Below, one piece after another: positions 5,337-34,285 of a stretch of 38,456 nucleotides of DNA. The stretch's first letter is position 1, and each line of letters begins with the position of its first letter. This DNA is from Patescibacteria group bacterium. Its GTDB lineage: Bacteria > Patescibacteriota > Minisyncoccia > Phycocordibacterales > JAKAEA01. The position numbers and the translations under genes were made by a program. The notes under the pieces were generated by a model. That model ran no database searches and was not told the DNA's origin. It was given only the letters and a program-made list of their open reading frames with translations. The DNA lies in NCBI GenBank assembly GCA_040387855.1, contig JAZKCY010000001.1:592337-630792 (forward strand), given 5' to 3'.

Positions 5337-5355
5337 GCACTATTTTTTACAGAAT

Positions 5356-5399
5356 AAAAAAAAGGCGTGTACCGGGAGGGGCACAGCCTTGTACCAAGG
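5356..5399 (-). terminator. intrinsic terminator of the PEP-CTERM gene
   Basis: On the minus strand: CCTTG-gta-CAAGG, then GGCTGT...ACACGCC (bulged stem), then T8. Confidence 0.5.
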
Positions 5400-5441
5400 A
5401 TCTGTCGAACAAAGTACTAACACTGACCACCATCAGGGTGG

Positions 5442-6182
5442 TTACTGCCGGCGACGTCGCCGGGCCAGGAGCCCGAGAGCTCCGATTCCGATGAGCGCTG
5501 CGCTCGTCGGCTCTGGGACATTGACGCCCCAGTTGTTGGCGTACGCTGTTCCCGGGGAACTGGCGCCACCGAACTCGATCTGGTTGGCGAATGCCGCCAG
5601 ATCCGCTGTGCGGGTGATGAGAGCACCCGTACCCATGTTGGTCACGTCGAGGCGGAATTGCCCGTCGGTGATCATCGTGAAGCGGATGCTGTACGGATTC
5701 CCGTCGAGTGCGGCTAGCGTTTGCTTGCCGCTTCCGCTCTGGAGCTTGAGGTTTGACCCTTCAGCCAAGACGCTCGCCGCTCCCGTACGGGTGGTGGAAC
5801 CTGCGCCCTCACTCAAGCCGACCCATGTCGTCTGAAGCGAGGTTTGCACCGGCGGAGCGAATAGCACGGTTAAGTGATCGCCTGCCCGGAGTTCGCGCTC
5901 GAGAGAACGAACGTACGCGGTGGAGCCGGTCATTGCGAATGACTGGCCGAGGACGGAGTTCTTGATGACTCCCGAGGTGGCAGACGTGCTGCCAACCCAG
6001 TTGCCCACGAACCCGACCCCGCCGGCCTTGCCCACGACCGTCTGGTCGAGAGTGTATGCCGGATCGGATCCCTTGAGCTCGGCGATGTAGCCGGCGCTCA
6101 CGGGACTGGAAAAGACACTGCTGAGGATGAAGGCGATCGTGCTGATCGCCATCATCTTCCCCACTTGGTGAGGAACCTTCAT
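5442..6182 (-). CDS. secreted PEP-CTERM sorting-domain protein (high-GC cassette)
   Basis: The C-terminus VPEPTSAALIGIGALGLLARRRRRQ has PEP, a TM segment and an Arg cluster. The N-terminal signal peptide is MKVPHQVGKMMAISTIAFILSSVFSSPVSA. The start at 6182 is preceded by GGAGG (5-nt spacer). The track start 6302 is a TTG inside the -10 box. Confidence 0.8.
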   Translation of the reverse strand: MKVPHQVGKMMAISTIAFILSSVFSSPVSAGYIAELKGSDPAYTLDQTVVGKAGGVGFVGNWVGSTSATSGVIKNSVLGQSFAMTGSTAYVRSLERELRAGDHLTVLFAPPVQTSLQTTWVGLSEGAGSTTRTGAASVLAEGSNLKLQSGSGKQTLAALDGNPYSIRFTMITDGQFRLDVTNMGTGALITRTADLAAFANQIEFGGASSPGTAYANNWGVNVPEPTSAALIGIGALGLLARRRRRQ

Positions 6183-6301
6183 GAGAACCTCCAACGGGCG
6201 AATGAAGTGCGAGATCAGCAGGAGCATCCAAGCGCCTGCGGGTCCCCATTGAAGCAACACGACGTACACACGCCGATTAATTGCTGAACTGACTGGACTC
6301 A

Positions 6302-6330
6302 AGTATACAACATATCAAAGAAAAAAGCAA
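6302..6330 (-). promoter_or_regulatory. sigma70-like promoter for the PEP-CTERM gene
   Basis: Minus strand TTGCTT-17 nt-TATACT. It implies a GC-rich leader of about 110 nt. Confidence 0.4.
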
Positions 6331-6461
6331 GTACCTCACATATTTGATTTTAGAGCCTAAAATAACGATTCGTACTGATGAGCTTATTTCTGTGGATAAA
6401 TCTACCCTACTAGTTAATATAAAATTAACGATACATACTTTTGCTCTTTTATAGACGACAT

Positions 6462-6489
6462 TTGCACAAATGCAATTTTCCTGTACAAT
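6462..6489 (+). promoter_or_regulatory. candidate tRNA-Ala promoter
   Basis: TTGCAC-16 nt-TACAAT, ending 18 nt upstream of the tRNA 5' end. Confidence 0.4.
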
Positions 6490-6507
6490 GATTTTGTTAG
6501 TTTTACT

Positions 6508-6580
6508 GGGCCCTTAGCTCATCTGGTAGAGCACCTCATTTGCAATGAGGGGGTGGCAGGTTCGAGTCCTGTAGGGTCCA
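6508..6580 (+). tRNA. tRNA-Ala (anticodon UGC)
   Basis: I folded the cloverleaf by hand. The acceptor GGGCCCT/AGGGTCC includes the diagnostic G3:U70 pair. D arm is GCTC/GAGC and the anticodon stem is CCTCA/TGAGG with loop TTTGCAA. T arm is GCAGG-TTCGAGT-CCTGT. Discriminator is A and CCA is not encoded. Confidence 0.9.
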
Positions 6581-6595
6581 CAAATAAAATCTAAA

Positions 6596-6616
6596 GCCGC
6601 AGAGATGCGGTTTTTT
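6596..6616 (+). terminator. intrinsic terminator after tRNA-Ala
   Basis: GCCGCA-gaga-TGCGG followed by TTTTTT. Confidence 0.6.
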
Positions 6617-6632
6617 GCTGGATGTATATAAC

Positions 6633-6661
6633 TTGACTTTATATCAATTTTATGATATTAT
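6633..6661 (+). promoter_or_regulatory. sigma70-like promoter with extended -10 for the zinc-ribbon gene
   Basis: TTGACT-17 nt-(TGa)TATTAT. Confidence 0.45.
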
Positions 6662-6716
6662 TCCAGTAGATCCCAAGCGAGATGCAAGGGACGACCTTAC
6701 CCAAGGAACTGGCGAG

Positions 6717-7412
6717 ATGCTGGTTCCCTTTGTGGCGAGATGCCACGGGAGTTTCGAGATGACTGCTACTGTAACTGGTCCGGCGACGTCGACCCCACAG
6801 TTAGATGCCTTCCTCAGGGAGTTCACCTTCCTCAGCAACCACTTCGATTTCAACTGGAAAAAACCGATTACCCACAGGGTGTCCCGGATCAACAGTTCGA
6901 TTTTGGATGTGTGCGCCATCGGTGAGTATCCCAAGGGACTTTACATCGGTCAACGCTATGTGACCGACCCCGACGAGACGATCGTGCTGTTCGATAAGAA
7001 TGGCTCGAGAATCGGCGATGTCGGTCGCGCAGTGATCACCAAGGAGATCGACGTAACGACAGGGTTCTGGTGGGACAGGAAAACCCACGTGAAGACCGTG
7101 AAGGAAACCACCTACTTCATGGAGTCGATCTGGGATTGCCTGAAGCGGCTGGGCGACGCAGTGAACGAGGTTCACTACATCGTCCGGACCAATTTCAGGA
7201 ACCAGTACTCTCACAAACCGACGATTGTCGTGTACAAGGCCCCTAAGGGCATGTCGATCATGGAGTTCATGGACTCCGAGATCAAGGAAGCGACCCTCGC
7301 GGTTGCAACCGAGATCATGGAGATCGACGGCAACAAGCCGTGCTGCAAGTGCCACTACGCACTACCGCAAGAAGCCAACTTCTGCTCCTCCTGCGGCCAC
7401 CCGCAAAAGTAA
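6717..7412 (+). CDS. hypothetical protein with C-terminal zinc-ribbon (high-GC cassette)
   Basis: 231 aa counted from the ATG at 6717 (AAGGA 9 nt upstream). The track start 6615 would translate the AT-rich promoter. The C-terminus CCKCHYALPQEANFCSSCGHP is a CxxC...CxxC ribbon. The N-terminal ~200 aa are unrecognised. Confidence 0.6.
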   Translation: MLVPFVARCHGSFEMTATVTGPATSTPQLDAFLREFTFLSNHFDFNWKKPITHRVSRINSSILDVCAIGEYPKGLYIGQRYVTDPDETIVLFDKNGSRIGDVGRAVITKEIDVTTGFWWDRKTHVKTVKETTYFMESIWDCLKRLGDAVNEVHYIVRTNFRNQYSHKPTIVVYKAPKGMSIMEFMDSEIKEATLAVATEIMEIDGNKPCCKCHYALPQEANFCSSCGHPQK

Positions 7413-7451
7413 GGAGCACAAAACCTTCCTCCAGGTATAATGGAGACAACC

Positions 7452-7479
7452 GAGCCCGGCGATTAACTTCGCCGGGCTC
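7452..7479 (+). terminator. perfect 10-bp hairpin downstream of the zinc-ribbon gene
   Basis: GAGCCCGGCG-attaactt-CGCCGGGCTC. The trailing U-tract is weak (AATCACATTTATTTT). Confidence 0.5.
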
Positions 7480-7495
7480 AATCACATTTATTTTA

Positions 7496-7642
7496 TTACT
7501 TACTCTTCTCTAGTTTCTCTATCTGCTTTTCCAAATCTTTAATCTTCTTTTTTTCTTCTGCCGATCCCTCACCCCATCCAGAAAGCATTGCTAATTCTTC
7601 ATTTAAGTCTTGTAGCTGTTCTTGTTTTGTTTTCTTTGCCAT
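7496..7642 (-). CDS. possible 48-aa charged coiled-coil peptide (below the ORF-track cutoff)
   Basis: Hand translation: MAKKTKQEQLQDLNEELAMLSGWGEGSAEEKKKIKDLEKQIEKLEKSK. It starts 6 nt after the antiporter stop. Backbone composition. No SD. Confidence 0.3.
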   Translation of the reverse strand: MAKKTKQEQLQDLNEELAMLSGWGEGSAEEKKKIKDLEKQIEKLEKSK

Positions 7643-7648
7643 AGAGAT

Positions 7649-9727
7649 TTATTTTAACAATTCATCCTTCAAATTAATATATACCTTCTGAGAAAGCATT
7701 TCTTTCTTGTACAAATCATTTAGTACAATCTCAGTAACTTTGTATGTGGCATTTAGAGTTAACCTGGTGTTGAGTTCACCTATCACGTTTGGGTTTGTTT
7801 TATGAATTTCTTCCATTCTCTTTTGAGCATGGACTCGTAGATCCCCGTATAATTTTATTGTACGATCTAAAGAATCCGCTTCAAAAATTCCAATTGGATA
7901 ATTAACTGTTACTTGCTCTAATTCTTTTATCACCTTACGCAAGATAATTGCTAACGCTCGATAATAGAGATATGCATCGTTGATTTCTTCTACTTGTTGA
8001 TCACGATTTCCTCGTAATACTTTCATTGTATAATCTGAGGTTCGTTCTATAAATCCTGAGGGGTCATGAGCATAGGGGTCAAAAGATAATGTGCCTTTTT
8101 CTAGTTGTTCTCTTTGTAGAGTTAGTTTTTTTAGTATTTTCTTAAATATATGTTCTGAAATTTCGTTATACAAGAACAATTCTTTTAGAAAGTGTTTCTC
8201 AATTCCTAAAGCATACATTCGTAATACACGTTCATGATGGGTTGTCTTTGTCCGGTGATGTTCCTGTCTGTGTGAGAGGAATTGTTCAAGTCCTTTTTCA
8301 TAATCTACTTTGATAATTTCATATGAATGTTTATCGATATACCCTTTTGTGTAGAAATCAGCCAATCTACCCAGCACTCGAGAGTTAATCATAGCCATAC
8401 TTTCTTCACGTTCGATTTTTTCTATATCAGTAAGATCACTAATCTTTAGCTTTTTTATGAACAATCCAATAGTTGTTGCTTTAAGGAAGATTGTGGCATA
8501 GATACACCCAATTGTTACAGCTAGAATAAACTCTTTAGGACTAAGGGCATGCGTCCAGCCAGGAATAGATAATGAATCTGGAATGAGTAAACCAACCATA
8601 ATTGCCAATGCACCTCTCAAACTCCCCCATGCCAATAAATGTTGCCATGACATTGGAATATGGGCTTCTTTCTTTCGCCAATTTACAAATCCAACAATTG
8701 GATATATAGAGAGTGCTCTCCCTACAGCTACAATTATTACACTTGCAATAATTGGCCAAATGAGATCTGTAAATGCAATTGGAACAGATATAAAAATAAG
8801 TCCCATCAAAATAAACACCAAAGAGTTGGCAATAAAGGCAAACTGTCCCCATACTTTTTCAACATATTCTTCGGCACGAATTGAGATTTTATATCGTCCG
8901 TAGTTTCCGAGGACCAATGCAGCAGCTGTAGTTGCAATAATTGGTGAGAGTTTTACTTCCTGACCAAAGAGTATTAAATGTTCAGAAATAAGTTCACTGA
9001 GAATAAATGTGAGGTGTGATACTACAAGAGTCAATGTAATACTTACAAATTCATTGTCACGAGTATATTGGATGAACTTCGAAAATACCCATCCCATAAA
9101 TGTTCCAAAGACCAACCCAAACGTTAGCATCATTATAAATATGAAGATGCCATGCACTACTGAAGCTGCTCCGTGAAATCCCGACTGGGCAATTTCAAGT
9201 ACAACAAGAAAAAGTGCTACAGCTGTAGCATCATTAAATATACTTTCTCCTTCAAATATAAGGGCAAGCCGCTTTGGCGCTCCATATTCTTTAAACAATG
9301 CGAGTACTGCTACAGGGTCAGTAGATGAAATAAGCGAAGCGAAAAGCAGTGCCACTATAAATGGTATTGGGAATCCAAAAAAGTTGAAGACAAGATACAT
9401 TGCTCCTGCAATGAAAAATGCTGAGAAAAGTAAGCTTATAAATGCCAATGCTGATATGGATCGTACATTCTCCATAATCTTTCGGAACTCCATATTATAA
9501 GCAGATTCAAAGAGAAGAATCGGCAAAAATACATAAAATAGAAGATTAGGTGTAAGTGTAAATTCCTTAATAAACGGGAAAAACTGTGCTAAAGGCACCA
9601 AGATCACTCCAATAGCTACCAATAATACGGTATATGGTAGTCGAACCTTTTTTGCCAAGAAAAAAGCACTACTAGCTATAGTGAGGAGGGTAAACAGGGC
9701 TAAGACGTATGATAATGTGATATCCAT
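7649..9727 (-). CDS. Na+/H+ antiporter, CPA1 (NhaP-type), with a ~260-aa cytoplasmic C-terminal extension
   Basis: 692 aa. The first ~430 aa are multi-TM with the ISSTDPVAV motif. The C-terminal helical region is of unknown function. Confidence 0.85.
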   Translation of the reverse strand: MDITLSYVLALFTLLTIASSAFFLAKKVRLPYTVLLVAIGVILVPLAQFFPFIKEFTLTPNLLFYVFLPILLFESAYNMEFRKIMENVRSISALAFISLLFSAFFIAGAMYLVFNFFGFPIPFIVALLFASLISSTDPVAVLALFKEYGAPKRLALIFEGESIFNDATAVALFLVVLEIAQSGFHGAASVVHGIFIFIMMLTFGLVFGTFMGWVFSKFIQYTRDNEFVSITLTLVVSHLTFILSELISEHLILFGQEVKLSPIIATTAAALVLGNYGRYKISIRAEEYVEKVWGQFAFIANSLVFILMGLIFISVPIAFTDLIWPIIASVIIVAVGRALSIYPIVGFVNWRKKEAHIPMSWQHLLAWGSLRGALAIMVGLLIPDSLSIPGWTHALSPKEFILAVTIGCIYATIFLKATTIGLFIKKLKISDLTDIEKIEREESMAMINSRVLGRLADFYTKGYIDKHSYEIIKVDYEKGLEQFLSHRQEHHRTKTTHHERVLRMYALGIEKHFLKELFLYNEISEHIFKKILKKLTLQREQLEKGTLSFDPYAHDPSGFIERTSDYTMKVLRGNRDQQVEEINDAYLYYRALAIILRKVIKELEQVTVNYPIGIFEADSLDRTIKLYGDLRVHAQKRMEEIHKTNPNVIGELNTRLTLNATYKVTEIVLNDLYKKEMLSQKVYINLKDELLK

Positions 9728-9803
9728 ATGTTTTTTAAATTGTGCTCTACTATTCTATGCTTGATGAGGATGATATTCAAGTTTTTTTTGCTATACTATA
9801 CGT

Positions 9804-11378
9804 ATGGGCAACAAACCTACTTATAAAAAGATAAGTGAGTTCCTTCTCTCCTTTCTTATTACATGTTATGAACTAACTGCTGGCTTCTTTTCAACTGTTG
9901 GCAGGGTTTTGCAGAATATTAGCAATTCTATTCCAAATTGGGAAATTCGAGAAAAAGCACATCCCGCATTATTGCGATTTGGAGTAGCTTTCATTTTGTG
10001 TTTAATCGCTATTGGTATTAAAAGTATTGCAGATCCGTACTTCGCATCGAGTCATCCTTTTCTGTTTTTCTATGGAGTCATCGTAATAAGTGCATGGTAT
10101 GGAGGAAGTCGACCAGGCATATTTGCAGCAATATTTGTATCTGTATTTGCCTATTATGCATATTTGAAACCGTTGAACCCAGATGCAACTGGACCAAACG
10201 TATTCGCATCATTTACATTTTTCATACAAGGACTACTTGTTGTAGGAATTAGCGCAACAATGCACAAGACTCAGCAAGAATTTGAAGAGAAAAAAAGATA
10301 TACCCAATATTATGCCAATATCGCCCGTCATATATCTGATGCTGTAATTTCTACAGATGAAGATCTCATAATTCAAAGTTGGAATGACGGAGCCGAACAA
10401 TTGTATGGATGGAAAGCAGATGAAGTACTTGGAAATAAACTTCACGATATTATCTCGTATTCTAGTGGATCAAATGCTAAAAGAAGTATTCTGGAAGTTC
10501 TAGATATTGATGAACACTGGAAAGGCGAAGTCGTCCATCATCGAAAAAATGGATCACGTATTCATATCCTTACGTCTGTATCAAAACTCTATGGCGAAGA
10601 TAATGAAATCCTAGGTGTAGTAATGGTTAATAAAGACATTACAGACCGCAAAAAGCTTGAACAAGGAAAAGATGACTTTATTGCTCTTGCCAGCCATGAA
10701 CTAAAAACTCCCCTTACCAGTGTAAAGCTTTATACCGGAATCTTAAAACAACTTTTCACTAAAAATGCTGATCCTAAGCCTTTAGAGTATTTATCTAAGG
10801 TTGATGGACAGATAGGCAAGCTTCTTGAGCTCGTAAATCATCTTTTAGATGTATCTAAGGTGCAGGCAGGTAAGATTCAATACCAGTTTGAGCCAGTGGA
10901 ATTAGACAAATTTGTAGTAGAAGTTGCACATGATATTCAACAAATTACTACGAGTCACACACTTACGATTACTGGTAAAACAGGTAAAATAGTGGCTATA
11001 GATAAGGATAGATTGCGGCAAGCAATTGTGAATATTTTAAATAATGCTATAAAGTACTCAGCTCAAGCACATACGGTGAATATTACGTTAACTAAAGAGC
11101 GAGATCAGGTTCGAGTTGCAATTCAAGACTTTGGTGTTGGTATTCCTAAAGAAAAGCAACACAAAATCTTTGATCGATTCTACCAAGTCAACGATTCTAA
11201 AGGGTATACTTATTCAGGTATGGGACTTGGCCTTTATATTACTCATGAGATAATAGAGAAACATAACGGTAAATTATGGGTCGAAAGTGAAGAAGACAAA
11301 GGTTCTACATTTATATTTACATTACCAACCTTAAGAAAAGGATATGAGCAAAAAAAAGACAATTCTCCTCGTAGATGA
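9804..11378 (+). CDS. sensor histidine kinase (TM/DUF4118-like + PAS + HisKA + HATPase_c)
   Basis: H-box SHELKTPL, N-box NILNNAIKYS, G-boxes DFGVGI and GMGLGLY. The PAS region is around aa 170-290. TATACT lies 6 nt upstream of the ATG. Confidence 0.85.
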   Translation: MGNKPTYKKISEFLLSFLITCYELTAGFFSTVGRVLQNISNSIPNWEIREKAHPALLRFGVAFILCLIAIGIKSIADPYFASSHPFLFFYGVIVISAWYGGSRPGIFAAIFVSVFAYYAYLKPLNPDATGPNVFASFTFFIQGLLVVGISATMHKTQQEFEEKKRYTQYYANIARHISDAVISTDEDLIIQSWNDGAEQLYGWKADEVLGNKLHDIISYSSGSNAKRSILEVLDIDEHWKGEVVHHRKNGSRIHILTSVSKLYGEDNEILGVVMVNKDITDRKKLEQGKDDFIALASHELKTPLTSVKLYTGILKQLFTKNADPKPLEYLSKVDGQIGKLLELVNHLLDVSKVQAGKIQYQFEPVELDKFVVEVAHDIQQITTSHTLTITGKTGKIVAIDKDRLRQAIVNILNNAIKYSAQAHTVNITLTKERDQVRVAIQDFGVGIPKEKQHKIFDRFYQVNDSKGYTYSGMGLGLYITHEIIEKHNGKLWVESEEDKGSTFIFTLPTLRKGYEQKKDNSPRR

Positions 11379-11721
11379 TACTCCTGATATTTTAGATGCG
11401 TTAGAACTAGTTCTTGGCATGGAAGGTTATGCTATTGAGCGAGCAACAACGCAATCACAAGTTGATGAAAGAATAAAAGATACTTCAGAACTTCCAAATC
11501 TGATTTTACTTGATGTACTTTTATCGGGACAAGATGGTCGAGTTATAGCAAAGTCACTTAAAGCAGCATCTAAAACAAAAAATATTCCTATCATTATGAT
11601 GTCTGCTCATCCAAATGTTTCTAAAACTATTACAGAAGCTGGTGCAGATGATTTCATTGCCAAGCCATTTGAAATGGAAGAGCTTCTCTCAAAAATTAAA
11701 AAGCATATATCTAAGAAATAG
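11344..11721 (+). CDS. single-domain response regulator (CheY-like receiver)
   Basis: 125 aa. It has the LLVDD acidic pocket, the LILLDVLL phospho-Asp and a KPF motif. It overlaps the kinase 3' end by 35 nt. Confidence 0.85.
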   Translation: MSKKKTILLVDDTPDILDALELVLGMEGYAIERATTQSQVDERIKDTSELPNLILLDVLLSGQDGRVIAKSLKAASKTKNIPIIMMSAHPNVSKTITEAGADDFIAKPFEMEELLSKIKKHISKK

Positions 11722-11745
11722 GTTTATTTAGCATAATGTATATAT

Positions 11746-11774
11746 TTGACACAGTGTATTATATATAGTATAAT
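11746..11774 (+). promoter_or_regulatory. perfect consensus sigma70 promoter
   Basis: TTGACA-17 nt-TATAAT exactly, 25 nt upstream of the ATG at 11800. GGAGG is at 11789-11793. Confidence 0.55.
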
Positions 11775-11799
11775 ACAGGTAGTTTAGTGGAGGCTAATC

Positions 11800-12192
11800 A
11801 TGGTGATAGCAGCATTTGCTGCTTGTACGGCTGTGAAAAGGTTGTGGGCGAAGTTCTTGCGCTTCATGCGTATCCTCGCCCTGATCTTAGCAGGAGTAAT
11901 CCTGGGATGGTACGCAAAAACGTACCACCACAAAATCTCCAAGACATGGCAGTATCAGATGGCTTTCGGCTGGCTAGCCGATGAACCAACTGAGAAAGTC
12001 AGAGTCACGGAGAAAGTCTCCGACGGGACTGTAACCGTCGCGAGAATCCCAGGCAAAGCGTGGCATGCATTCCGGGAGGAGTTCAACAAACCTTCCGAGG
12101 TGCCGCCAGCATCCCCTGCCACACAGCCAACAACCAAACCAGCACAACGCTGGTGGCCCTTCTACCTAAGGAGCAAACCCGGACCGGGATAA
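11800..12192 (+). CDS. membrane-anchored hypothetical protein with Pro/Thr-rich C-terminus (high-GC cassette)
   Basis: 130 aa. It has one N-terminal TM segment (ILALILAGVILGWY) and the tail PPASPATQPTTKPAQ. GGAGG lies 6 nt upstream and a strong terminator follows. Confidence 0.55.
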   Translation: MVIAAFAACTAVKRLWAKFLRFMRILALILAGVILGWYAKTYHHKISKTWQYQMAFGWLADEPTEKVRVTEKVSDGTVTVARIPGKAWHAFREEFNKPSEVPPASPATQPTTKPAQRWWPFYLRSKPGPG

Positions 12193-12212
12193 TTATTTCC
12201 CCACGTCCAACG

Positions 12213-12250
12213 CCCTGCATCGCATTTCACTATGCGATGCAGGGTTTTCG
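12213..12250 (+). terminator. strong intrinsic terminator
   Basis: Perfect 13-bp stem CCCTGCATCGCAT-ttcact-ATGCGATGCAGGG followed by TTTTCGTTT. It abuts the ddl stop codon. Confidence 0.75.
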
Positions 12251-12251
12251 T

Positions 12252-13223
12252 TTATCTACGATGTGTATGAGCAAGAGTGATTAGATGCTCAAGAAAATCA
12301 GGAAAAGAAACTCCAATAGATTCCAAAGACTGTGGCAATAATGACTGTGGTGTAAGTCCAGGCAACGTATTTACTTCAAGAATGTACACACCTCTTCGGG
12401 GAGTTACAATAAAATCTGAGCGAGAGTAATGTCGCAAGCCTAAAGATTCATGTGCTAGTTTTGCTAGTCTTTGAATTTCTGCTTTTTCTAGTGCTGTAAA
12501 ATTGCCTGGGTATATTTCCTGAGTCTTACCGTTATATTTTGATTCATAATCAAAATGATCTGTATGTGAAGGATGAATTATTTCAACAGGTGGTAATATG
12601 TAGTGCGTTTCCCCACGTAATCCGTCGATAACTCCACAAGTAGCTTCCTTTCCTCGAATGTATTCTTCCATAAGTACCGTATCAGAATATTGAAATGCAT
12701 TATGAAAGGCTTCTTCTAAATGATTGAAATTTTTAACAATACTTACTCCCATTGATGATCCTGATGTTGCAGGTTTTACTACTATTGGCAAAAAGAAATG
12801 ATGAAACGCATAACTCACTTTCTCTTTTAGATTGTCTGTATGTCGTATAACTGTATGATATGGAGTTTTTAATCCATGATGAGTAAAAGCATTTTTTGAA
12901 AGTATCTTATTCATACCTACAGCTGATGCCATAGAACCAGAGCCAGTATATGGAAGTGCTAGCGCATCAAGAATTTGTTGCACCTTACCATCTTCGCCAT
13001 ATTCACCGTGTAGCGCATTAAAAACAACATCAACATGAGCTAATGCACGCTCTGGAGATTTTTCCATACCATCTCGATGCCAAGTACCATCTTTTGAAAT
13101 AAAAATATCGTGGCCGTGATATTTTTCTGGGAGATGTTTCAAAACAGCACCTCCACTTTTTAGAGAAACATCATATTCACTTGATGGACCGCCACGCAAT
13201 ACTGCCACTCGTAGTTTTGTCAT
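12252..13223 (-). CDS. ddl: D-alanine--D-alanine ligase
   Basis: 323 aa, ATP-grasp fold. It has the VAVLRGGPSSEYDVSL N-terminus, a HGEYGEDG motif and a LEVNTLPGLT C-terminal motif. TATACT lies 7 nt upstream of the ATG. Confidence 0.9.
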   Translation of the reverse strand: MTKLRVAVLRGGPSSEYDVSLKSGGAVLKHLPEKYHGHDIFISKDGTWHRDGMEKSPERALAHVDVVFNALHGEYGEDGKVQQILDALALPYTGSGSMASAVGMNKILSKNAFTHHGLKTPYHTVIRHTDNLKEKVSYAFHHFFLPIVVKPATSGSSMGVSIVKNFNHLEEAFHNAFQYSDTVLMEEYIRGKEATCGVIDGLRGETHYILPPVEIIHPSHTDHFDYESKYNGKTQEIYPGNFTALEKAEIQRLAKLAHESLGLRHYSRSDFIVTPRRGVYILEVNTLPGLTPQSLLPQSLESIGVSFPDFLEHLITLAHTHRR

Positions 13224-13283
13224 TACATCTAGTATAACAAATGATGAGGCACTTTTGTTTCGCGTGTGTGTATAAAAATTGAA

Positions 13284-14534
13284 TTAACCAATTTTGTCTC
13301 GTTTTTTTCTATGATAAGCCAAAGCAAATCTGTGAGCTTCGCTATTTACGAGCAAAATAGATTTACCATGATTTATTACAGTCTGCTGATCCCCTAGTAT
13401 TTCTTTTGGTTTATGTCGTTCATCTTTTATCACAGCAGCAAGCTCAATTGTGAGCCCTCGTTCTTTAAGCACAGCTTGTGCAGCATTCATCTGAGCAGTA
13501 CTACCATCAACAACAATCAGATTCGGCATAGGCCATTCTAAGTGCCCCAAACGTCGTCTTAAGATCTCTTTAAGTGCTCCTGTGTCATTAACTCCTGGAT
13601 TTATTTTAATTTTAAATTTTCTATACTGCGATTTATTTATTTCACCATCTTCTACAACTACCATTACACCAACAACAGACGTTCCAGAACTATGCGCCAC
13701 ATCATATGCTTCTATTCTAAATACATCATCAGATCCAGATACAGCTCCACCTGCAGAATCATAAATTTTATTAGTACTCTTGAGAAGTGCTACATCATGA
13801 ATGTGATTGAGGGCAAAAATAGTATTTCGTGCTCGTGATGCGAGTTCAAATTCCTGAACCTTTGCATAAGCATCCATCTGCTTCTCAAGATTTTTAATAA
13901 GTGCTTTCTTTTTACCTTCAAAAAACATTCTTAGATTTTGGATATGGTCACTATATGCTTCTTGAGTAATCTCGCCAGTACATACTCCTGGACACAAGCC
14001 GATCTGCCTATTGAAACAAGGTTTACCAGACTGAGGTGTACACTTATTGTCAGAATAAGGAAAAATCTTCCTAATTATTTTCATTGCCACTTTAAGCTGG
14101 CCTCCATGAGGAAACGGCCCAAAAATATATTTATATTTTTTATTATCCTGCTCTGTTAAGACAGTTCTCCCTCGAACTGTTAAAATCTTTGGAAAATTCT
14201 CGTTAGTAAAGACAACATAGTTGTAGCTTTTATTATCTTTTTCTTTTGTATTAAATCGTGGTTGATGAGTTTTTATGAGATTTGCTTCAAGCAATAGAGC
14301 CTCAAGTACAGAATCAGTTTGTGTAACATCTATGTCATGAGCAAGAGCGACCATATCCACCAAAAGTCTTCCACGAGTTTGAATAAGATCAGCACCAAAA
14401 TAACTTCGCACGCGATCGCGAAGTGATGTGGCTTTGCCAATATATAAAATATCTCCTTGGGAATCTTTAAAGAAATACACACCCGGTGTATCAGGTAATT
14501 TTTCAGATATGATTTTAAATTCTTGACCTGTCAT
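13284..14534 (-). CDS. uvrC: excinuclease ABC subunit C, short form lacking the C-terminal (HhH)2 domain
   Basis: GIY-YIG (PGVYFFKD..ILYIGKA), a Cys-rich segment, a UVR domain, and the RNase H-like endonuclease region (FRIEAYDVAH). It is 416 aa, against about 610 in E. coli. Confidence 0.85.
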   Translation of the reverse strand: MTGQEFKIISEKLPDTPGVYFFKDSQGDILYIGKATSLRDRVRSYFGADLIQTRGRLLVDMVALAHDIDVTQTDSVLEALLLEANLIKTHQPRFNTKEKDNKSYNYVVFTNENFPKILTVRGRTVLTEQDNKKYKYIFGPFPHGGQLKVAMKIIRKIFPYSDNKCTPQSGKPCFNRQIGLCPGVCTGEITQEAYSDHIQNLRMFFEGKKKALIKNLEKQMDAYAKVQEFELASRARNTIFALNHIHDVALLKSTNKIYDSAGGAVSGSDDVFRIEAYDVAHSSGTSVVGVMVVVEDGEINKSQYRKFKIKINPGVNDTGALKEILRRRLGHLEWPMPNLIVVDGSTAQMNAAQAVLKERGLTIELAAVIKDERHKPKEILGDQQTVINHGKSILLVNSEAHRFALAYHRKKRDKIG

Positions 14535-14593
14535 GATTTAAATAGTACGTTAGTTAAGGGCGACGGGCAAATTCACATTTTAGCGAGGTGTCT

Positions 14594-14764: not shown

Positions 14765-14768
14765 GGTT

Positions 14769-14792
14769 CGTCTTCCGAGGCGAGCTTTTTTT
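14769..14792 (+). terminator. intrinsic terminator after the 56-aa ORF
   Basis: CGTCT-tccg-AGGCG, then agc and TTTTTTT. Confidence 0.45.
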
Positions 14793-14801
14793 ATGTACCA
14801 T

Positions 14802-24657: not shown

Positions 24658-25035
24658 TTATTTAACGTCCATCAACTCAACTTCAAATAGAAGTGTTGAA
24701 TTTGCTGGAATTGGACCAACGGCTTGAGCTCCGTATCCTTTTTCTGGTGGAATTACGAGATTCTTCTTTTCTCCAACTTTCATACCAAGAATTCCCTCTT
24801 CCCATCCCTTAATAACCATACCTGCACCAAGAACAAATTCAATAGGTTCACCACGGTCTCGAGAACTATCAAATTTTGTACCGTCCTGAAGCGTACCAAC
24901 ATAGTGCACGCTCACTGTTTTTCCATTTTCTGCAATCTTAGGCATACTGCGTGAGTAAATTATTGGGACGACAATGGCTAGGACTACTAATAATCCAAAA
25001 CCTAAGGTAATCCACTCTATTTTTGATAATTTCAT
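24658..25035 (-). CDS. membrane-anchored FKBP-type peptidyl-prolyl cis-trans isomerase
   Basis: N-terminal TM segment followed by VSVHYVGTLQDGTKFDSSRDRGEPIEFVLGAGMVIKGWEEG...LLFEVELMDV. Confidence 0.85.
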   Translation of the reverse strand: MKLSKIEWITLGFGLLVVLAIVVPIIYSRSMPKIAENGKTVSVHYVGTLQDGTKFDSSRDRGEPIEFVLGAGMVIKGWEEGILGMKVGEKKNLVIPPEKGYGAQAVGPIPANSTLLFEVELMDVK

Positions 25036-25827: not shown

Positions 25828-26161
25828 AAAATGTGTACCTTGTGAAAAAGGAGGGAAAGCACTGGAACCAGATGCTATTCACGAGCTACATCATAGAGTA
25901 AAAGGTTGGGATGTTGTAGATCATAAAGAAATAAAGAAAACCTTAAGCTTTATTGATTTTAAACATGCTATTAGTTTTGTGCAGGAAGTTGCTGATCTCG
26001 CTGAATATGAAGGACACCATCCTGATTTAAATATTTTTGGTTGGAATAAACTTACTATTACTTTGAGTACTCATTCAGTAAAAGGCCTTACTGAGAATGA
26101 TTTTATAATGGCTGCAAAAATTGATCAGCTTCTCGCTGAATCTGAGGAAATTGAGCAATAA
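25802..26161 (+). CDS. pterin-4-alpha-carbinolamine dehydratase (PCD/DCoH)
   Basis: 119 aa with the motifs W........L.R.F.F..F and EGHHPDL. Confidence 0.8.
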   Translation: MLMEELRHKKCVPCEKGGKALEPDAIHELHHRVKGWDVVDHKEIKKTLSFIDFKHAISFVQEVADLAEYEGHHPDLNIFGWNKLTITLSTHSVKGLTENDFIMAAKIDQLLAESEEIEQ

Positions 26162-26191
26162 AAAAAGCATCTCCCTTCCAGGATGATGCTT
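26160..26191 (-). terminator. intrinsic terminator of the kinase-like gene
   Basis: Minus strand AAGCATC-atcctggaaggga-GATGCTT followed by TTTTTT. Confidence 0.5.
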
Positions 26192-26213
26192 GTTATGTAC
26201 GTGAACAGAAGCT

Positions 26214-26822
26214 TTATGCTGCCACCACTTTCAGCTGCTTGAGCCACTCGTAGATCTCCTTAAAGATCGTATCGAGTGGCCGTTCACCGCCTATGGTGAT
26301 GAAGTTGAGCTCATGAGCATCATGTGCTCTTTCAAGCTCTGCACGGAGCGGCGGGAAGTCCCGCTCAAATTCCTCGATCCGCCGATCGATTACATCTATG
26401 GTCTCGCCCTTACGCCGACGGCTCTCCATTCGAGCCTTAGCAGCGCTAGCCGAAACCTCGATGTTGAAGACGATGATGTTTCCATCGTTACGCTCATCAG
26501 TCCAGCGCCTCAGGTGCTGATACTGATTGATGTTACGCGGAACTCCATCGTCAACACGGTTCCCCGGAGGGATCCTATCGAGTGCAGGTCGGTAGATCCT
26601 TGGCAGCAGGATCTGATCTGGAACGAGAAGACCCTGCGACGAGTATCCGTGCACGAGCTGCCCAAGTTCAGTGCTTGGTGAGATGTTGCGACACTCATCC
26701 CCCACATTGATCGAGGGCCAGTCCAACGCTTCCAAGATCTTCGAACCCTGGGTACCTTTGCCACAGCCCGGATAACCTACAAGTAGGATAACCGTGCCAT
26801 TAGCCGATTCAGCATTTCTCAA
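26214..26822 (-). CDS. adenylate kinase-family P-loop nucleoside-monophosphate kinase (high-GC cassette), TTG start
   Basis: It has the GYPGCGKGTQ Walker A, GLLVPD and DDGVPRN (compare DGFPR). The start codon is TTG with GGAGG 6 nt upstream. There is no in-frame ATG before the P-loop. Confidence 0.7.
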   Translation of the reverse strand: MRNAESANGTVILLVGYPGCGKGTQGSKILEALDWPSINVGDECRNISPSTELGQLVHGYSSQGLLVPDQILLPRIYRPALDRIPPGNRVDDGVPRNINQYQHLRRWTDERNDGNIIVFNIEVSASAAKARMESRRRKGETIDVIDRRIEEFERDFPPLRAELERAHDAHELNFITIGGERPLDTIFKEIYEWLKQLKVVAA

Positions 26823-26866
26823 AAGTCACCTCCACGAGTTAATTCAGGTGTACGACGCCAGACGAA

Positions 26867-26895
26867 ATACTACTGATTTATTAAAAATGTGTCAA
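26867..26895 (-). promoter_or_regulatory. sigma70-like promoter
   Basis: Minus strand TTGACA-17 nt-TAGTAT, ending 7 nt from the CapA stop. Confidence 0.45.
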
Positions 26896-32078: not shown

Positions 32079-32083
32079 AGGTA

Positions 32084-32629
32084 TTAAGCAAACTTTGCTC
32101 TCCTTGCTTTATATGAGTTATCAAGAATTTTTTTTGCTTCACCTTGAGGTTCGGTTAGATTATTTAGTTCTGCTTGATCTTGTATTTTTTGTAGGAAAAA
32201 TTCTGGATGTTCGTGATAATAATTTCCTGCAAATATATATGAGACTTTTGATCTGAGTTCAGTTGGCAATGCATCTAGAATATAGTTCTTCATATGATCA
32301 GGCGTAAACAGATACAGTGTATCAATATTTTTCTTATGCATGTGCATATACATCTTAAGATGATGTTTAAGCGCAGTAATAAAATCACGAATAACTACTC
32401 TATCTAAGTCGGTAAGTGAACTTCCTGATTGAATCATTCCGTTTCTACTTGTTGAAGCATAACTTCCTTCTCTATCAGAATACTTTGGATGCGGAATAGA
32501 AATATCATCGACTAATTCTATAGTCGCATCATATACATGGTAAAATTTTGCATCCTGCTTACCCGTAACCAGAAATAGAGCTTCTTCAGATGTAAACTGT
32601 GGGTAGTCTTGAGATATAGTTGTTCGCAT
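32084..32629 (-). CDS. hypothetical protein (possibly host-attachment / baeRF-like; unverified)
   Basis: 181 aa. There is only a weak pattern resemblance, so the call needs an HMM search. Confidence 0.35.
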   Translation of the reverse strand: MRTTISQDYPQFTSEEALFLVTGKQDAKFYHVYDATIELVDDISIPHPKYSDREGSYASTSRNGMIQSGSSLTDLDRVVIRDFITALKHHLKMYMHMHKKNIDTLYLFTPDHMKNYILDALPTELRSKVSYIFAGNYYHEHPEFFLQKIQDQAELNNLTEPQGEAKKILDNSYKARRAKFA

Positions 32630-32691
32630 ATACGTAAATATATTAGCTACTACCTATCTAGTGACGCACCAGCATCTAAAAACTAACACTA

Positions 32692-33246
32692 TTAAAATTT
32701 TCTACTATCGTATGCCCAATGCAAGAGTGCTTGGCGTTGTTTTGTATTACAAAATACATCTCCCGGACGACATTTATTCTTAATTTGTGCTATATGTCGC
32801 TTCATTGCTTTCCATCTGCGTATTTGTCGAGCATCTTCTTTGTCCAATCTACGTCCGACATAGTAACGGCAATACCATTGAAACCAGCCTCGAGGATCAT
32901 CCACATAAATCCAGCCTTTCTTTTGCCATTCTTTCAGACTCTGACTTGCATCAACTTGAAAATAATTAATGCTGGGATTCTTTTGGCCGTACGAAAGCTT
33001 TGCATGAGCAAACCATGACTCAGGAAACTCATCTTTACAATCAGTAAGATATTTTCCACCAAATACACCAAGCTCAAGCATCTCTTTTGGAGTAAGATCA
33101 GGCTTAAATTCGGGATCAAAGTTTTTACCTACAGGTTCGGTACATTCATATGTATAGTCGAGTTGCATACTGTCGTGCACGTACACAAGTCTTTTTTTCA
33201 TGCTCAAAGCATACCATATGGCCATTCTTATGCTATAATCGCGCAC
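32692..33246 (-). CDS. conserved hypothetical protein (RGWFQWYCRYYVGRR / IRRWKA motif family)
   Basis: 184-aa ORF. The start may be the internal MKKRL at 33201, because 33246 lies 2 nt from the rsmG ATG. I recognise the motif family as a conserved DUF but cannot name it confidently. Confidence 0.5.
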   Translation of the reverse strand: MRDYSIRMAIWYALSMKKRLVYVHDSMQLDYTYECTEPVGKNFDPEFKPDLTPKEMLELGVFGGKYLTDCKDEFPESWFAHAKLSYGQKNPSINYFQVDASQSLKEWQKKGWIYVDDPRGWFQWYCRYYVGRRLDKEDARQIRRWKAMKRHIAQIKNKCRPGDVFCNTKQRQALLHWAYDSRKF

Positions 33247-33248
33247 AT

Positions 33249-33968
33249 ATGGAAAATACTATGGAACCCTTAATTTCAGGCGCTGAAAAACTTGGAATTC
33301 GTATAAAAGCAGATCAATTAGAGAAGTTTACTATACTTTTGAATACTCTTTTGGAATGGAATAAGACTATGAATCTTACGGGAATAACTGATCCTAAAGA
33401 AGTGATTATCAAGCATTTCCTAGATTCACTCACCGTGCTTCCTCATATTCCAAACAATGCTCGTACATATATTGATGTGGGAACTGGTGCAGGTTTCCCA
33501 GGACTTGTGGTGGCAATCATGAAGCCAAAACTAAACATTACTCTTTTAGAAGCAGCTGCAAAAAAGGTATCTTACCTGGAAGCATGTATTACTGCTTTAG
33601 AATTGGATCCTGAAAACGTGCAGTCAATTCACGGCAGAGCTGAAGATCTTGCAAAGATGCCAGAATTTCGAGAATCATTTGATATTGGAACTGCACGAGC
33701 TGTAGCACTCCTTCCAACACTTTCTGAATATGTACTTCCACTTATTAAAAAAGATGGTATTTTTATTGCTCAGAAAAAAGCAGGGACTGATGAGGTTGAT
33801 CAAGCTTCTAATGCTATTAAACTTTTGGGAGCTGAAGTAGAGTCTTCACAAGCACTTAATCTCGAAGAATTACCTGAACGACAAATTATAATCATCAAAA
33901 AGATTTCAAAAACTCCCGACATGTATCCACGCCGATCAGGAATGCCACTTAAGAAGCCACTGGTATAA
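33249..33968 (+). CDS. rsmG: 16S rRNA (guanine527-N7)-methyltransferase
   Basis: It has NLTGITDPKEVIIKHFLDSL and the DVGTGAGFPGLVVAI SAM motif. The start at 33249 lies 9 nt downstream of TGcTATAAT (33231-33239). Confidence 0.85.
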   Translation: MENTMEPLISGAEKLGIRIKADQLEKFTILLNTLLEWNKTMNLTGITDPKEVIIKHFLDSLTVLPHIPNNARTYIDVGTGAGFPGLVVAIMKPKLNITLLEAAAKKVSYLEACITALELDPENVQSIHGRAEDLAKMPEFRESFDIGTARAVALLPTLSEYVLPLIKKDGIFIAQKKAGTDEVDQASNAIKLLGAEVESSQALNLEELPERQIIIIKKISKTPDMYPRRSGMPLKKPLV

Positions 33969-33970
33969 AT

Positions 33971-33995
33971 AAAAAAAACCGCAGTGTTAGTGCGG
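33971..33995 (-). terminator. intrinsic terminator overlapping the stop of the 76-aa gene
   Basis: Minus strand CCGCA-ctaacac-TGCGG followed by T8. Confidence 0.5.
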
Positions 33996-34217
33996 CCCTT
34001 GTTTCAAAGCTAATCGGATTTTATCCTGAAAGAAATACGCAAGTATCGATCCCACAAAACAGAATGCTCCTACTAAAGCTAGGAACAGCCCAATTGTGTA
34101 GACATACTTGTATTCTATTTCGGCATACGTGATTCCATCCCTCATCTGACTAAATCCCATTATACAGCCAATGGCCATCAAGATCAGACTCGAGTAGAAA
34201 AGAATTTTCACAAGCAT
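33987..34217 (-). CDS. 76-aa 2-TM membrane protein, hypothetical
   Basis: GGAGG lies 4 nt upstream, and it has its own promoter-like and terminator elements. The compositional contrast with flanking genes is weak. Confidence 0.5.
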   Translation of the reverse strand: MLVKILFYSSLILMAIGCIMGFSQMRDGITYAEIEYKYVYTIGLFLALVGAFCFVGSILAYFFQDKIRLALKQGPH

Positions 34218-34255
34218 CAGACCTCCGTGATTCCCCCTGGTACATTCCTTAAAAC

Positions 34256-34284
34256 AGACTACGGGAAACGCAGAGCTACGTCAA
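34256..34284 (-). promoter_or_regulatory. sigma70-like promoter
   Basis: Minus strand TTGACG-17 nt-TAGTCT, abutting the ABC permease stop. Confidence 0.35.
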
Positions 34285-34285
34285 T

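Follow-up and report, generated by a model that had tools for sequence, protein, structure and literature searches.

The window analysed here is a stretch of 38,456 nt from contig JAZKCY010000001.1 of assembly GCA_040387855.1. It is a real part of a chromosome of about 0.98 Mb with low guanine-plus-cytosine (GC) content, belonging to a member of the Paceibacteria (Patescibacteria/Candidate Phyla Radiation, CPR), in which short GC-rich gene cassettes lie between housekeeping genes such as uvrA, uvrB, uvrC, ddl and tgt. In our view, these cassettes are most probably the result of real horizontal transfer, partly from Phycisphaerae, of 12 to 13 high-GC genes into the low-GC chromosome, where they are carried as units resembling the morons of phages.

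A first-pass annotation had proposed eight to nine high-GC cassettes in the intergenic gaps of a low-GC backbone. The segments could be confirmed and the number of genes had to be corrected to 12 clear units and a marginal one (12–13 genes), with three units in the segment at 21.2–22.66 kb and two in that at 14.56–15.2 kb (Table 1). Eight segments have a GC content of 46.6–59.4 %, compared with 36.7 % for the rest of the window outside the nine segments, and the ninth is marginal. In a 300-nt sliding profile, the backbone runs flat at 31–46 % and is interrupted by blocks of 47–63 % GC with steps of 10–22 points and sharp change points. A two-state hidden Markov model (HMM) called nine islands (5364–6275, 6672–7479, 11818–12244, 14558–15191, 18047–18502, 18583–19063, 21996–22488, 24034–24377 and 26218–26771), which agree with the proposed segments within a few tens of bases; the segment 33971–34285 and the region 21.2–22.0 kb were not called by this model and are thus classified as marginal or intermediate. 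In agreement with the first-pass annotation, no backbone open reading frame (ORF) is cut by any segment, and segment ends lie close to stop codons of the neighbours: the T-run at 12245–12251 adjoins the ddl stop codon (12252–12254) and the one at 15192–15199 overlaps the uvrA stop codon (15196–15198). At these convergent stops, the T-runs may serve both genes.

The codon positions tell the same story. The gene at 5442–6182 has 63 % GC, with fractions of 0.59, 0.52 and 0.74–0.76 at the first, second and third codon positions (GC1, GC2 and GC3). Across the cassette genes GC3 amounts to 0.43–0.82, compared with 0.16–0.44 (mostly 0.2–0.3) in backbone genes, and GC1 and GC2 are raised together with GC3, a profile typical of genes from high-GC genomes. 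The GC change points lie 0–25 nt past the -10 box at one end and at the hairpin or T-run at the other, and the GC-rich DNA therefore matches the predicted transcript closely. The earlier conclusion that different GC contents imply several donors did not hold: Phycisphaerae are indicated as donor for a cassette of 56 % GC as well as for one of 51 %, and the spread of GC values is explained equally well by different residence times (amelioration).

All four promoters quoted in the first-pass annotation are present (cassettes 2, 3, 7b and 9 in Table 1), and its description of self-contained units with their own promoter, Shine-Dalgarno (SD) and terminator signals in intergenic positions was borne out. 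The order within a unit is an AT-rich promoter (11–33 % GC), a leader of 25–110 nt, the GC-rich coding sequence (CDS), a GC-rich hairpin and a T-run, with GGAGG or AGGAGG in the leaders 3–8 nt upstream of the start codon. A promoter match of at least 9/12 was found in 10 of 12 cassette units. The total number of promoter-like matches is at chance level (53 vs 46.8 ± 6.5), and five of the six best matches (at least 10/12; 5–25 kb scanned) lie at most 120 nt upstream of a cassette ORF (binomial p = 2e-7). An SD of at least 5 nt located 3–8 nt from the start was detected in 8 of 12 cassette genes vs 1 of 36 backbone genes (Fisher p = 1e-5). A hairpin followed by a T-run is present in at least 10 of 12 units, with folding energies of -5 to -26 kcal/mol, and these predicted terminators would insulate the neighbouring genes.

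To describe the native signals, the window was pooled with 67 low-GC related loci (from L001–L080 and L162–L241; L numbers designate the loci compared). Hexamers resembling a -10 box occur 6–7 nt before the ATG in 12.8 % and 7.5 % of the native ORFs vs a background of about 1.5 % per position, and this peak is missing in the GC-rich ORFs. Native promoters are of the extended -10 type (TGnTATAAT). Their best -35 match reaches at least 5/6 in 4.3 % vs 2.4 % at control positions (n = 184), and the same threshold is reached by 8 of 10 cassette promoters. SD motifs are found in 3.6 % of native ORFs vs 2.4 % of internal control sites. The backbone genes of the window accordingly mostly lack both an SD (1 of 36) and a strong -35 box (near control level), as had been claimed before. 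The native regime thus apparently consists of extended -10 promoters and leaderless, SD-independent mRNAs. An extended -10 box ending 6–7 nt before the ATG would imply that leaderless mRNAs are widespread in this Paceibacteria lineage, and the part of the literature covered gave no account of a leaderless, SD-free regime in Patescibacteria/CPR. Each cassette unit looks composite, with an imported transcribed part including the SD and a promoter of recipient-like composition and non-native architecture. Donor-derived cassette promoters were considered and rejected, because the regions upstream of planctomycete genes lack both AT-richness and consensus-like promoters.

The clearest indication of a donor comes from cassette 5, which encodes a predicted regulator of the CsrA family fused to a helix-turn-helix domain of the HTH_8 family. 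In a search against 185,579 species representatives, nearly all of the 80 loci nearest to csrA belong to the Planctomycetota, mainly to Phycisphaerae/Tepidisphaeraceae. The best relatives share 80–89 % amino acid identity over the CsrA domain, and the fusion of CsrA with HTH_8 is also present in three of these loci (L102, L121 and L134), with 45–51 % identity over the full length. Viral CsrA proteins are no closer than 77 %. At the DNA level, identity of csrA is 77–81 %, is limited to the CDS and ends about 10 nt before the ATG. The motif GGAAGGAG is found upstream of csrA in 19 of 20 loci checked (19 planctomycete) and the window has AGGAGG; this donor-type SD has been kept, and it therefore travelled with the gene.

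A second gene, 22014–22598 in cassette 7c, points in the same direction. The only relative of its product among the GTDB species representatives is encoded in L305, a metagenome-assembled genome (MAG) of the Phycisphaerales, with 31 % identity over 179 aa (E 9e-23) and the common C-terminus DWWKRGEKPP[YF]. The L305 protein resembles a response regulator, in which the matching output domain is C-terminal and follows a receiver domain. No viral or plasmid match was found for the window protein. Cross-phylum nearest relatives were thus shown for two genes, and at least part of the donor pool would be Phycisphaerae (Tepidisphaerales/Phycisphaerales) of the Planctomycetota. A further CsrA of 83 aa, 74 % identical to that of the window, is encoded at 2850–3101 of L142, a contig of 52 % GC in a MAG labelled as Saccharibacteria; it has the linker RANRAAAGVKPEDV and is not preceded by an SD. 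L142 could be a second Patescibacteria carrier of a planctomycete-type CsrA or a binning error. Among the titles and abstracts seen, none dealt with an episymbiont association between Paceibacteria and Planctomycetota.

The cassettes reside in a chromosomal region with conserved gene order. UvrA is 68–77 % identical to its counterparts in 160 loci from MAGs and metagenome contigs, and those with a name bear the label Paceibacteria, Parcubacteria, Taylorbacteria, Nomurabacteria or Zambryskibacteria. The order LOG-FKBP-tgt-uvrB-uvrA-uvrC-ddl is kept across Paceibacteria genomes in dozens of MAGs. In L005, L009, L012, L016 and L056 the gaps tgt|uvrB, uvrA|uvrC and FKBP|tgt measure only 4–60 nt, and the sites filled in the window are therefore empty in these relatives; this answers positively, for some relatives, a check that the first-pass annotation had suggested. 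The uvrB|uvrA gap is at least 100 nt long in every relative compared. In other relatives, the same spacers are filled with 0.4–6 kb of unrelated material.

GC-rich, SD-led units are a lineage-wide phenomenon. At least one ORF with a GC content 8 or more points above the locus background was found in 32 of the 67 low-GC related loci, and one with 12 or more points in 15 of them. The window is about 9 times denser in GC-deviant ORFs than the average (2.3 vs 0.26 per 10 kb), and L039, L046 and L014 reach a comparable density. Such ORFs occupy the same variable gaps, namely uvrA-uvrC (L014, L039) and uvrC-ddl (L043, L045, L064), and an SD precedes 33 % of the strongly GC-deviant ORFs vs 3.6 % of the native ones (p = 9e-7). 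The L030 unit consists of TTGACA-17-TATAAT, AAGGAG and a terminator, the L039 unit starts with TTGACT-17-TATAAT, and units in L212, L045 and L064 are similar in their promoter, SD and terminator build. Nine of ten GC-deviant proteins of the relatives have no Pfam domain. With the exception of the protein of cassette 9, which resembles adenylate kinase (ADK), none of the cassette proteins of the window was found in the 160 related loci.

Two side observations concern these relatives. A divergent ADK-like P-loop gene forms a GC-rich island in L043 (12136–12837), L045 (14219–14806), L064 (6313–7005) and L036 (about 9034–9645), usually between uvrC and ddl; the window copy (26214–26822) is at a different site and the copies of the relatives are 21–31 % identical to it. 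In L039 (16102–16925), two adjacent GC-rich, SD-led units have near-identical terminators (ccccgcaca..gcgcttc..agtgtcgcggggttttctca), which suggests tandem duplication or module reuse.

The contiguity of the mosaic was examined by exact look-up. Backbone and cassette proteins are encoded together both on one NCBI contig (981,549 bp) and in Logan assemblies. For run SRR26324620, Logan provides two contigs that match the window at 100 % identity, L304 over 779–6536 and L081, which is part of a 32,367-bp Logan contig, over 6552–22192. All junctions of the first seven segments are included in these two contigs, and the sole break lies inside the tRNA-Ala gene (ends 6536 and 6552).

As the first-pass annotation had stated, the window contains no integrase, transposase, flanking repeats, attC-like sites or shared junction motif. 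Apart from CsrA, which matches a PHROG family, no integrase, transposase or phage gene is present among the ORFs of the window, and searches with blastn-short and for repeats found no flanking or shared repeats, no common junction motif and no common 3' module or expression platform. The tRNA-Ala gene is intact, and only cassettes 1 and 2 adjoin it.

In the scenario that we favour, small foreign genes would have been fixed in the spacers of housekeeping genes, either singly or as groups of two or three. DNA could have entered by uptake from the environment or from a host, which is plausible given the reported competence and pilus genes of Patescibacteria; transfer of single genes into these bacteria, with competence and pili as proposed route, has been described (Gios et al., 2025, mSystems, PMC12455944). 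Insertion would then have occurred by illegitimate recombination. In such a compact genome, selection and deletion bias may retain only those inserts that are non-disruptive and trimmed to one functional unit, and the promoters could have been built or recruited in low-GC spacer DNA after arrival. Structured GC-rich mRNAs would need an SD and perhaps a stronger promoter, in contrast to the native AT-rich mRNAs. Each unit would thus be insulated and monocistronic, with a -35/-10 sigma-70 start, an imported leader with SD, and a hairpin/T-run stop before the essential neighbour. An undescribed acquisition mode may exist, although it is not required.

Several other explanations have to be weighed against such a transfer. 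That the GC-rich pieces do not naturally belong to this chromosome, and reflect an assembly chimera, a binning artefact or an engineered or in silico composite, is hardly credible. The signals are very clean (the promoter at 11746–11774 matches the consensus at 12/12 positions), most of the cassette proteins tested are orphans and mobility genes are missing from the window. However, a second assembler yielded 100 % identical sequence over all junctions within 779–22192, all of the about 18 junctions are intergenic and equipped with working signals, and units of the same build are seen in numerous Paceibacteria MAGs and metagenome contigs that were assembled independently, unrelated MAGs included. 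In addition, csrA shares only 77–81 % DNA identity with any known copy, so that it was not pasted from a database. The chimeric or artificial origin considered in the first-pass annotation therefore has to be given up: given the Logan contigs and the recurrence in relatives, an engineered or in silico composite is ruled out and a chimera is very unlikely. We give next to no weight either to the idea that the cassettes are the remnant of one large element (a prophage, an integrative and conjugative element, an integron array or a tRNA-linked island) and that the housekeeping genes only seem to be backbone. The clustering of the cassettes within 21.5 kb and the tRNA-Ala gene between cassettes 1 and 2 would fit, but uvrABC, ddl and tgt stand between the cassettes in an order conserved throughout the class, integrase, transposase and phage genes are absent from the 38 kb, attC-like or flanking repeats are missing, and the cassettes have their own promoters and both orientations. 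Native genes driven to high GC by a local process (GC-biased conversion, transcription-coupled repair or selection on highly expressed leadered genes) are also very improbable. Such a process would be in line with the coincidence of the GC-rich stretch with the predicted transcript, with the recurrence in low-GC relatives, several of which have a GC-rich ADK-like gene, and with the lack of outside homologues for most cassette proteins. It is opposed by the relationship of csrA to Phycisphaerae (77–81 % DNA and 80–89 % protein identity) with a donor-type SD that was kept, by the exclusively Phycisphaerales relative of the 22014–22598 protein, by GC1 and GC2, and hence amino acid composition, being raised along with GC3, and by relatives that have nothing, or unrelated genes, at these sites. 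No process is known to us by which individual bacterial genes would gain 20 GC points.

A shared mobile pool as immediate source (phages, plasmids or higher-GC Patescibacteria), spread by homologous recombination via conserved flanks, deserves more attention and is still unlikely. The moron-like anatomy (PMC4378225), promoters that differ from those of donor and recipient alike, the 74 % identical CsrA in the Patescibacteria MAG L142, the range of 31–61 % GC among Paceibacteria, and the finding that most reported transfers into Patescibacteria come from other Patescibacteria (PMC12455944) all speak for it. Yet only CsrA has a PHROG match, and the proteins tested are unmatched in INPHARED phages, PLSDB plasmids and IMG/VR, again except for CsrA, for which these matches are weaker than those in Planctomycetota. 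Moreover, the cassettes and the relatives have no non-coding module in common, of the cassette proteins only the ADK-like one is represented in the 160 related loci, and tetranucleotide usage is nearer to Planctomycetota than to high-GC Paceibacteria. Finally, there might be a lineage-wide, dedicated domestication of genes from a Phycisphaerae host, in which pieces of exactly transcript length, from the leader with its SD through the CDS to the terminator, are placed behind local AT-rich promoters, for instance via reverse-transcribed mRNA. Capture of this cDNA type stays conceivable because the GC-rich DNA nearly coincides with the transcript, and we consider the whole proposal improbable. 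If it were true, the cell would possess a second, SD-dependent expression tier beside the leaderless one, and the content of the cassettes would name the host.

Horizontal transfer, in part from Phycisphaerae, thus remains our preferred explanation, and a number of points weigh against it. A donor lineage could be identified for only 2 of about 13 cassette genes, and the four other cassette proteins searched are orphans or nearly so, their origin being judged by composition alone. The tetranucleotide comparison, in which the pooled cassettes correlate with Planctomycetota loci at r 0.68, with high-GC Paceibacteria at 0.49 and with their own backbone at 0.40, is weak, as only two high-GC reference sets were included. 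The promoters are a further difficulty: a 45-mer of at most 30 % GC occurs in only 0.4 % of 494 planctomycete upstream regions and a promoter match of at least 10/12 in only 1 of the 494. With 11–33 % GC and a strong -35 box, the cassette promoters are therefore unlike both the planctomycete and the native type. The GC-rich stretch often runs from just past the -10 box to the terminator, which would need very effective trimming of random fragments. The Logan assembly was made with a different assembler, probably from the same reads as the deposited genome, and is not an independent sample. Lastly, genome and metagenome scans with uvrA yielded no strain above 77 % amino acid identity, and because the nearest uvrA is this distant, exact insert boundaries and microhomology are not definable.

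The cassettes share features with several known systems. Streamlined free-living bacteria carry flexible genomic islets, i.e. single-gene insertions and deletions between core genes. Conserved core synteny is common to both, as are small inserts that vary between genomes at a given inter-gene position, and in most relatives insert GC tracks host GC (r = 0.81), whereas the inserts of the window and of a subset of relatives are 10–25 GC points higher and have different expression signals. Transfer from host to episymbiont has been used to infer hosts, as for Saccharibacteria with actinobacterial hosts. Here, too, an ultra-small bacterium with a reduced genome has genes nearest to one other lineage, but only two genes carry the Phycisphaerae signal, and a partnership with Phycisphaerae is hypothetical. 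Integron cassettes are likewise small units of one gene each, diverse in origin and composition and closely arrayed. In contrast to the window units, with their own promoters and mixed orientation and with neither attC-like repeats nor an integrase in the window, they are promoterless, co-oriented, attC-ended and dependent on IntI, attI and Pc. The hallmarks of integrase-mediated islands, a recombinase and flanking repeats, were not found in the window.

The closest resemblance is to morons, and the earlier statement that no described class of elements scatters promoter-equipped single genes has to be withdrawn, since phage morons are defined in this way (PMC4378225) and single-gene transfers are known in Patescibacteria (PMC12455944). 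Usually, a moron consists of a single coding region, equipped with a promoter and a terminator of its own, and is placed between two genes that adjoin each other in related genomes; its composition differs from that of its neighbours, a recombinase target is not recognizable and its acquisition has been called mysterious (PMC4378225). The concept goes back to Juhala and Hendrix and was reviewed in 'The moron comes of age' (Cumby et al., 2012, cited in PMC4378225). The window units agree with it in their own promoter and terminator, in their position between genes adjacent in relatives, in their deviant composition and in the lack of a recognizable recombinase target. They differ in being carried by a cellular chromosome (uvrABC, ddl, tgt, FKBP and a two-component system) instead of a phage, and the contrast between SD-led units and apparently leaderless native genes lies outside the moron concept. 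With three of four defining features present, the units are moron-like and not members of the moron class. Gios et al. (2025; PMC12455944) also describe Patescibacteria that received single genes, some of them from other phyla. In their study, the donors are Omnitrophota, Bacteroidota and others ('Planctomycet' does not occur in the main text), and autonomous promoter/SD/terminator units, a split between leaderless native and SD-led foreign genes, and a dense array between conserved genes are all missing from its description.

Horizontal transfer into Patescibacteria is already documented, and known biology is not overturned by the present case. Its points of interest are the dense array of autonomous moron-like units, the Phycisphaerae signal and the two expression grammars that recur in relatives. 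For most Paceibacteria/Parcubacteria, hosts and lifestyles are unknown, and genes of Phycisphaerae type provide a concrete hypothesis for a partner or DNA source. Two expression grammars in one small genome yield a simple sequence rule to spot recent acquisitions and a natural system for studying what the expression of GC-rich foreign genes requires in an AT-rich cell with leaderless mRNAs. Moreover, the moron concept is extended from phages to a cellular chromosome.

Table 1. Segments, cassette units and backbone features of the window (aa, amino acids; promoters as -35 box, spacer length in nt and -10 box).
Feature	Position	Strand	Description
Segment	5345–6330		59.1 % GC
Segment	6633–7480		53.4 % GC
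Segment	11746–12250		51.3 % GC
Segment	14556–15197		54.2 % GC
Segment	17966–19116		55.3 % GC
Segment	21205–22660		46.6 % GC
Segment	23998–24386		59.4 % GC
Segment	26160–26895		51.2 % GC
Segment	33971–34285		42.2 % GC
Cassette 1	5345–6330	-	CDS 5442–6182, 246 aa; SD GGAGGT 4 nt before ATG
Cassette 1 promoter	6330–6302	-	weak, TTGCTT-17-TATACT
Cassette 1 terminator	hairpin ~5363–5390, T-run ~5353–5362	-	T-run reads as A-run on + strand
Cassette 2	6633–7480	+	CDS 6759–7412, 217 aa; alternative start 6717
Cassette 2 promoter	6633–6661	+	TTGACT-17-(TG)TATTAT
Cassette 2 hairpin	7453–7480	+	-25.7 kcal/mol, no T-run directly after
Cassette 3	11746–12251	+	CDS 11800–12192, 130 aa; SD GGAGG 6 nt before ATG
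Cassette 3 promoter	11746–11774	+	TTGACA-17-TATAAT, 12/12
Cassette 3 terminator	12212–12245 + T-run	+	-24.5 kcal/mol
Cassette 4a	14558–14795	+	ORF 14594–14764, 56 aa; SD GAGGTG 3 nt before ATG
Cassette 4a terminator	hairpin 14763–14788 + T-run	+	
Cassette 4b	14802–15199	+	CDS 14871–15167, 98 aa; promoter TTGACA-17-TATCGT 14802–14830
Cassette 5	17966–18549	-	CsrA + Fis-type HTH_8 fusion, CDS 18011–18421, 136 aa
Cassette 5 promoter	18549–18522	-	TTGACT-16-TATTTT
Cassette 5 terminator	~17968–18005 with T-run	-	
Cassette 6	18578–19116	-	CDS 18618–19040, 140 aa; SD AGGAGG 7 nt before ATG
Cassette 6 promoter	19116–19088	-	TAGACT-17-(TG)TATAGT
Cassette 7a	21205–21638	-	CDS 21233–21589, 118 aa; SD GGAGG 3 nt before ATG
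Cassette 7a promoter	21638–21609	-	TTGATA-18-TATATT
Cassette 7b	21654–21973	-	CDS 21654–21926, 90 aa; SD AGGAGGT 3 nt before ATG
Cassette 7b promoter	21973–21946	-	TTGACT-16-TATAAC
Cassette 7c	21990–22660	-	CDS 22014–22598, 194 aa; SD GGAG; terminator 21998–22011 + T-run
Cassette 8	23998–24388	+	ORF 24050–24289, 79 aa; alternative SD-led start 24119 gives 56 aa
Cassette 8 promoter	23998–24025	+	TTGACC-16-TATACT
Cassette 9	26160–26895	-	CDS 26214–26822, 202 aa; TTG start, SD GGAGGTG 4 nt upstream
Cassette 9 promoter	26895–26867	-	TTGACA-17-TAGTAT
Cassette 9 terminator	26163–26200 with T-run	-	
Marginal tenth unit	33971–34285	-	ORF 33987–34217, 76 aa membrane protein; SD GGAGGT 3 nt before ATG
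ddl	12252–13223	-	backbone, Pfam
uvrC	13284–14534	-	backbone, Pfam
uvrA	15196–17853	-	backbone, Pfam
uvrB	19121–21163	-	backbone, Pfam
tgt	22676–23902	-	backbone, Pfam
FKBP	24658–25035	-	backbone, Pfam
tRNA-Ala(TGC)	6508–6581	+	backbone, between cassettes 1 and 2; ARAGORN + Rfam
uvrA-uvrC gap			661 nt in the window
uvrB-uvrA gap			1267 nt in the window
tgt-uvrB gap			1512 nt in the window

Judging by sequence, the cassette products comprise a putative secreted protein with PEP-CTERM signal, four small membrane proteins, two regulator-like proteins (the CsrA-HTH fusion and a receiver-less output domain) and a P-loop kinase. The protein of cassette 1 starts with a signal-like segment and ends with a PEP-CTERM sorting motif (PF07589 27.4 bits, cut-off 20.7; TIGR02595 29 bits, cut-off 16), and its C-terminus VPEPTSAALIGIGALGLLARRRRRQ is composed of the PEP motif, a transmembrane (TM) helix and a basic tail. 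An exosortase is not among the products of the 38-kb window, and the protein matched only itself among 5.8e9 proteins.

Cassette 2 (GC 53 %, GC3 0.77) encodes a protein with a C-terminal zinc ribbon, for which all Pfam matches are sub-threshold; it likewise matched only itself among the 5.8e9 proteins and gave no phage match. The 3' arm of its hairpin (aacttcgccgggctcaatc, 7465–7483) matches 19 of 19 nt in L135 (6781–6799) and is also matched in L104 (6824–6840), i.e. in coding DNA about 0.6–0.8 kb downstream of csrA in two Phycisphaerae loci (blastn-short E 2e-4 in a database of 0.8 Mb). We tentatively read this coding DNA as flagellin (motif NFAGLN). The match may be a scrap of donor DNA or chance.

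The protein of cassette 3, which has a TM segment at its N-terminus and a tail rich in Pro, forms a singleton cluster at 90 % identity. Cassette 4a, which was absent from the first-pass annotation, encodes a C-terminal TM segment (GC3 0.65). Cassette 4b encodes a membrane protein with a Pro/Ala-rich tail (GC 60 %, GC3 0.80) and ends in a short hairpin with T-run. Opposite to 4a and 4b lies an ORF of 123 aa (14573–14944, minus strand) without start signals and without Pfam match, which is probably spurious and of a kind common in GC-rich DNA.

In cassette 5, the SD AGGAGG is located 8 nt before the ATG, and the 5' untranslated region of about 95 nt contains a GC-rich hairpin. The CsrA domain scored 87.6 bits with PF02599 (cut-off 27) and 94.7 bits with the equivalog NF002469 (cut-off 73); the HTH_8 domain scored 33.4 bits in Pfam. 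A second recorded product of 18011–18421 (P0003, 76 aa) corresponds to the HTH_8 half. It starts at an internal Met, and one annotation pipeline has therefore split or truncated the fusion.

Cassette 6 (GC3 0.82) ends in a terminator of -21.7 kcal/mol with T-run. Its protein has no relative in the reference genomes and one real homologue, with 38 % identity, among 1.84e9 representatives; the single-sequence AlphaFold model reached a pLDDT (predicted local distance difference test) of 46 and was not used. Cassettes 7a and 7b have an intermediate GC content of 47 % each; 7a is followed by a hairpin and T-run at about 21207–21232, and 7b has no clear terminator. The promoter regions of 7a (21609–21647) and 7c (22631–22669) share 39 nt at 72 % identity (AAT.TAAACCA...CAAATAAAAAAT), the sole hint of likeness between the non-coding parts of two cassettes. 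Cassette 8 has 63 % GC and a terminator hairpin at about 24347–24378 followed by a T8 run.

The product of cassette 9 scored 63.5 bits with the Pfam ADK model, and every NCBIfam adk model remained below its cut-off (best 81 vs 262 bits). It is probably a divergent ADK-like P-loop kinase, unconfirmed as adenylate kinase. One relative, on a 1.2 kb JGI contig, is 74 % identical, all others are at most 40 % identical and no close one was found in the reference genomes. The marginal tenth unit has only 40–42 % GC and may be an older, ameliorated cassette. PDB sequence searches with the orphan proteins gave nothing below E = 0.07 and PADLOC gave no meaningful defence-system match. An Rfam scan at gathering score returned the tRNA only, and the islands are therefore not known RNA genes.

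The backbone products identified by Pfam include G6PD, an NDP-sugar transferase, a Na/H exchanger, a PAS histidine kinase with response regulator, Ddl, UvrC, UvrA, UvrB, Tgt and FKBP; a LOG-family protein, a pterin dehydratase, a PGA_cap protein, GidB and an ABC transporter complete the set. The genes ddl, uvrC, uvrA, uvrB, tgt and FKBP each have 36–39 % GC, no SD and a -10 box 6–8 nt upstream of the ATG, and the stretch from ddl to FKBP (12252–25035) is the native carrier of cassettes 4–8. UvrC is only 416 aa long; GIY-YIG, UVR and RNase H-like domains were recognized in it, whereas nothing matched a C-terminal HhH domain. UvrA has 885 aa. In model bacteria, about 600 aa and about 940 aa are usual, so both window copies are shorter. 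The histidine kinase gene (9804–11378) and the response-regulator ORF (11344–11721, from the first possible start) overlap by 35 nt (11344–11378). The regulator may in fact start further downstream; otherwise, the two genes would form a tightly coupled native operon.

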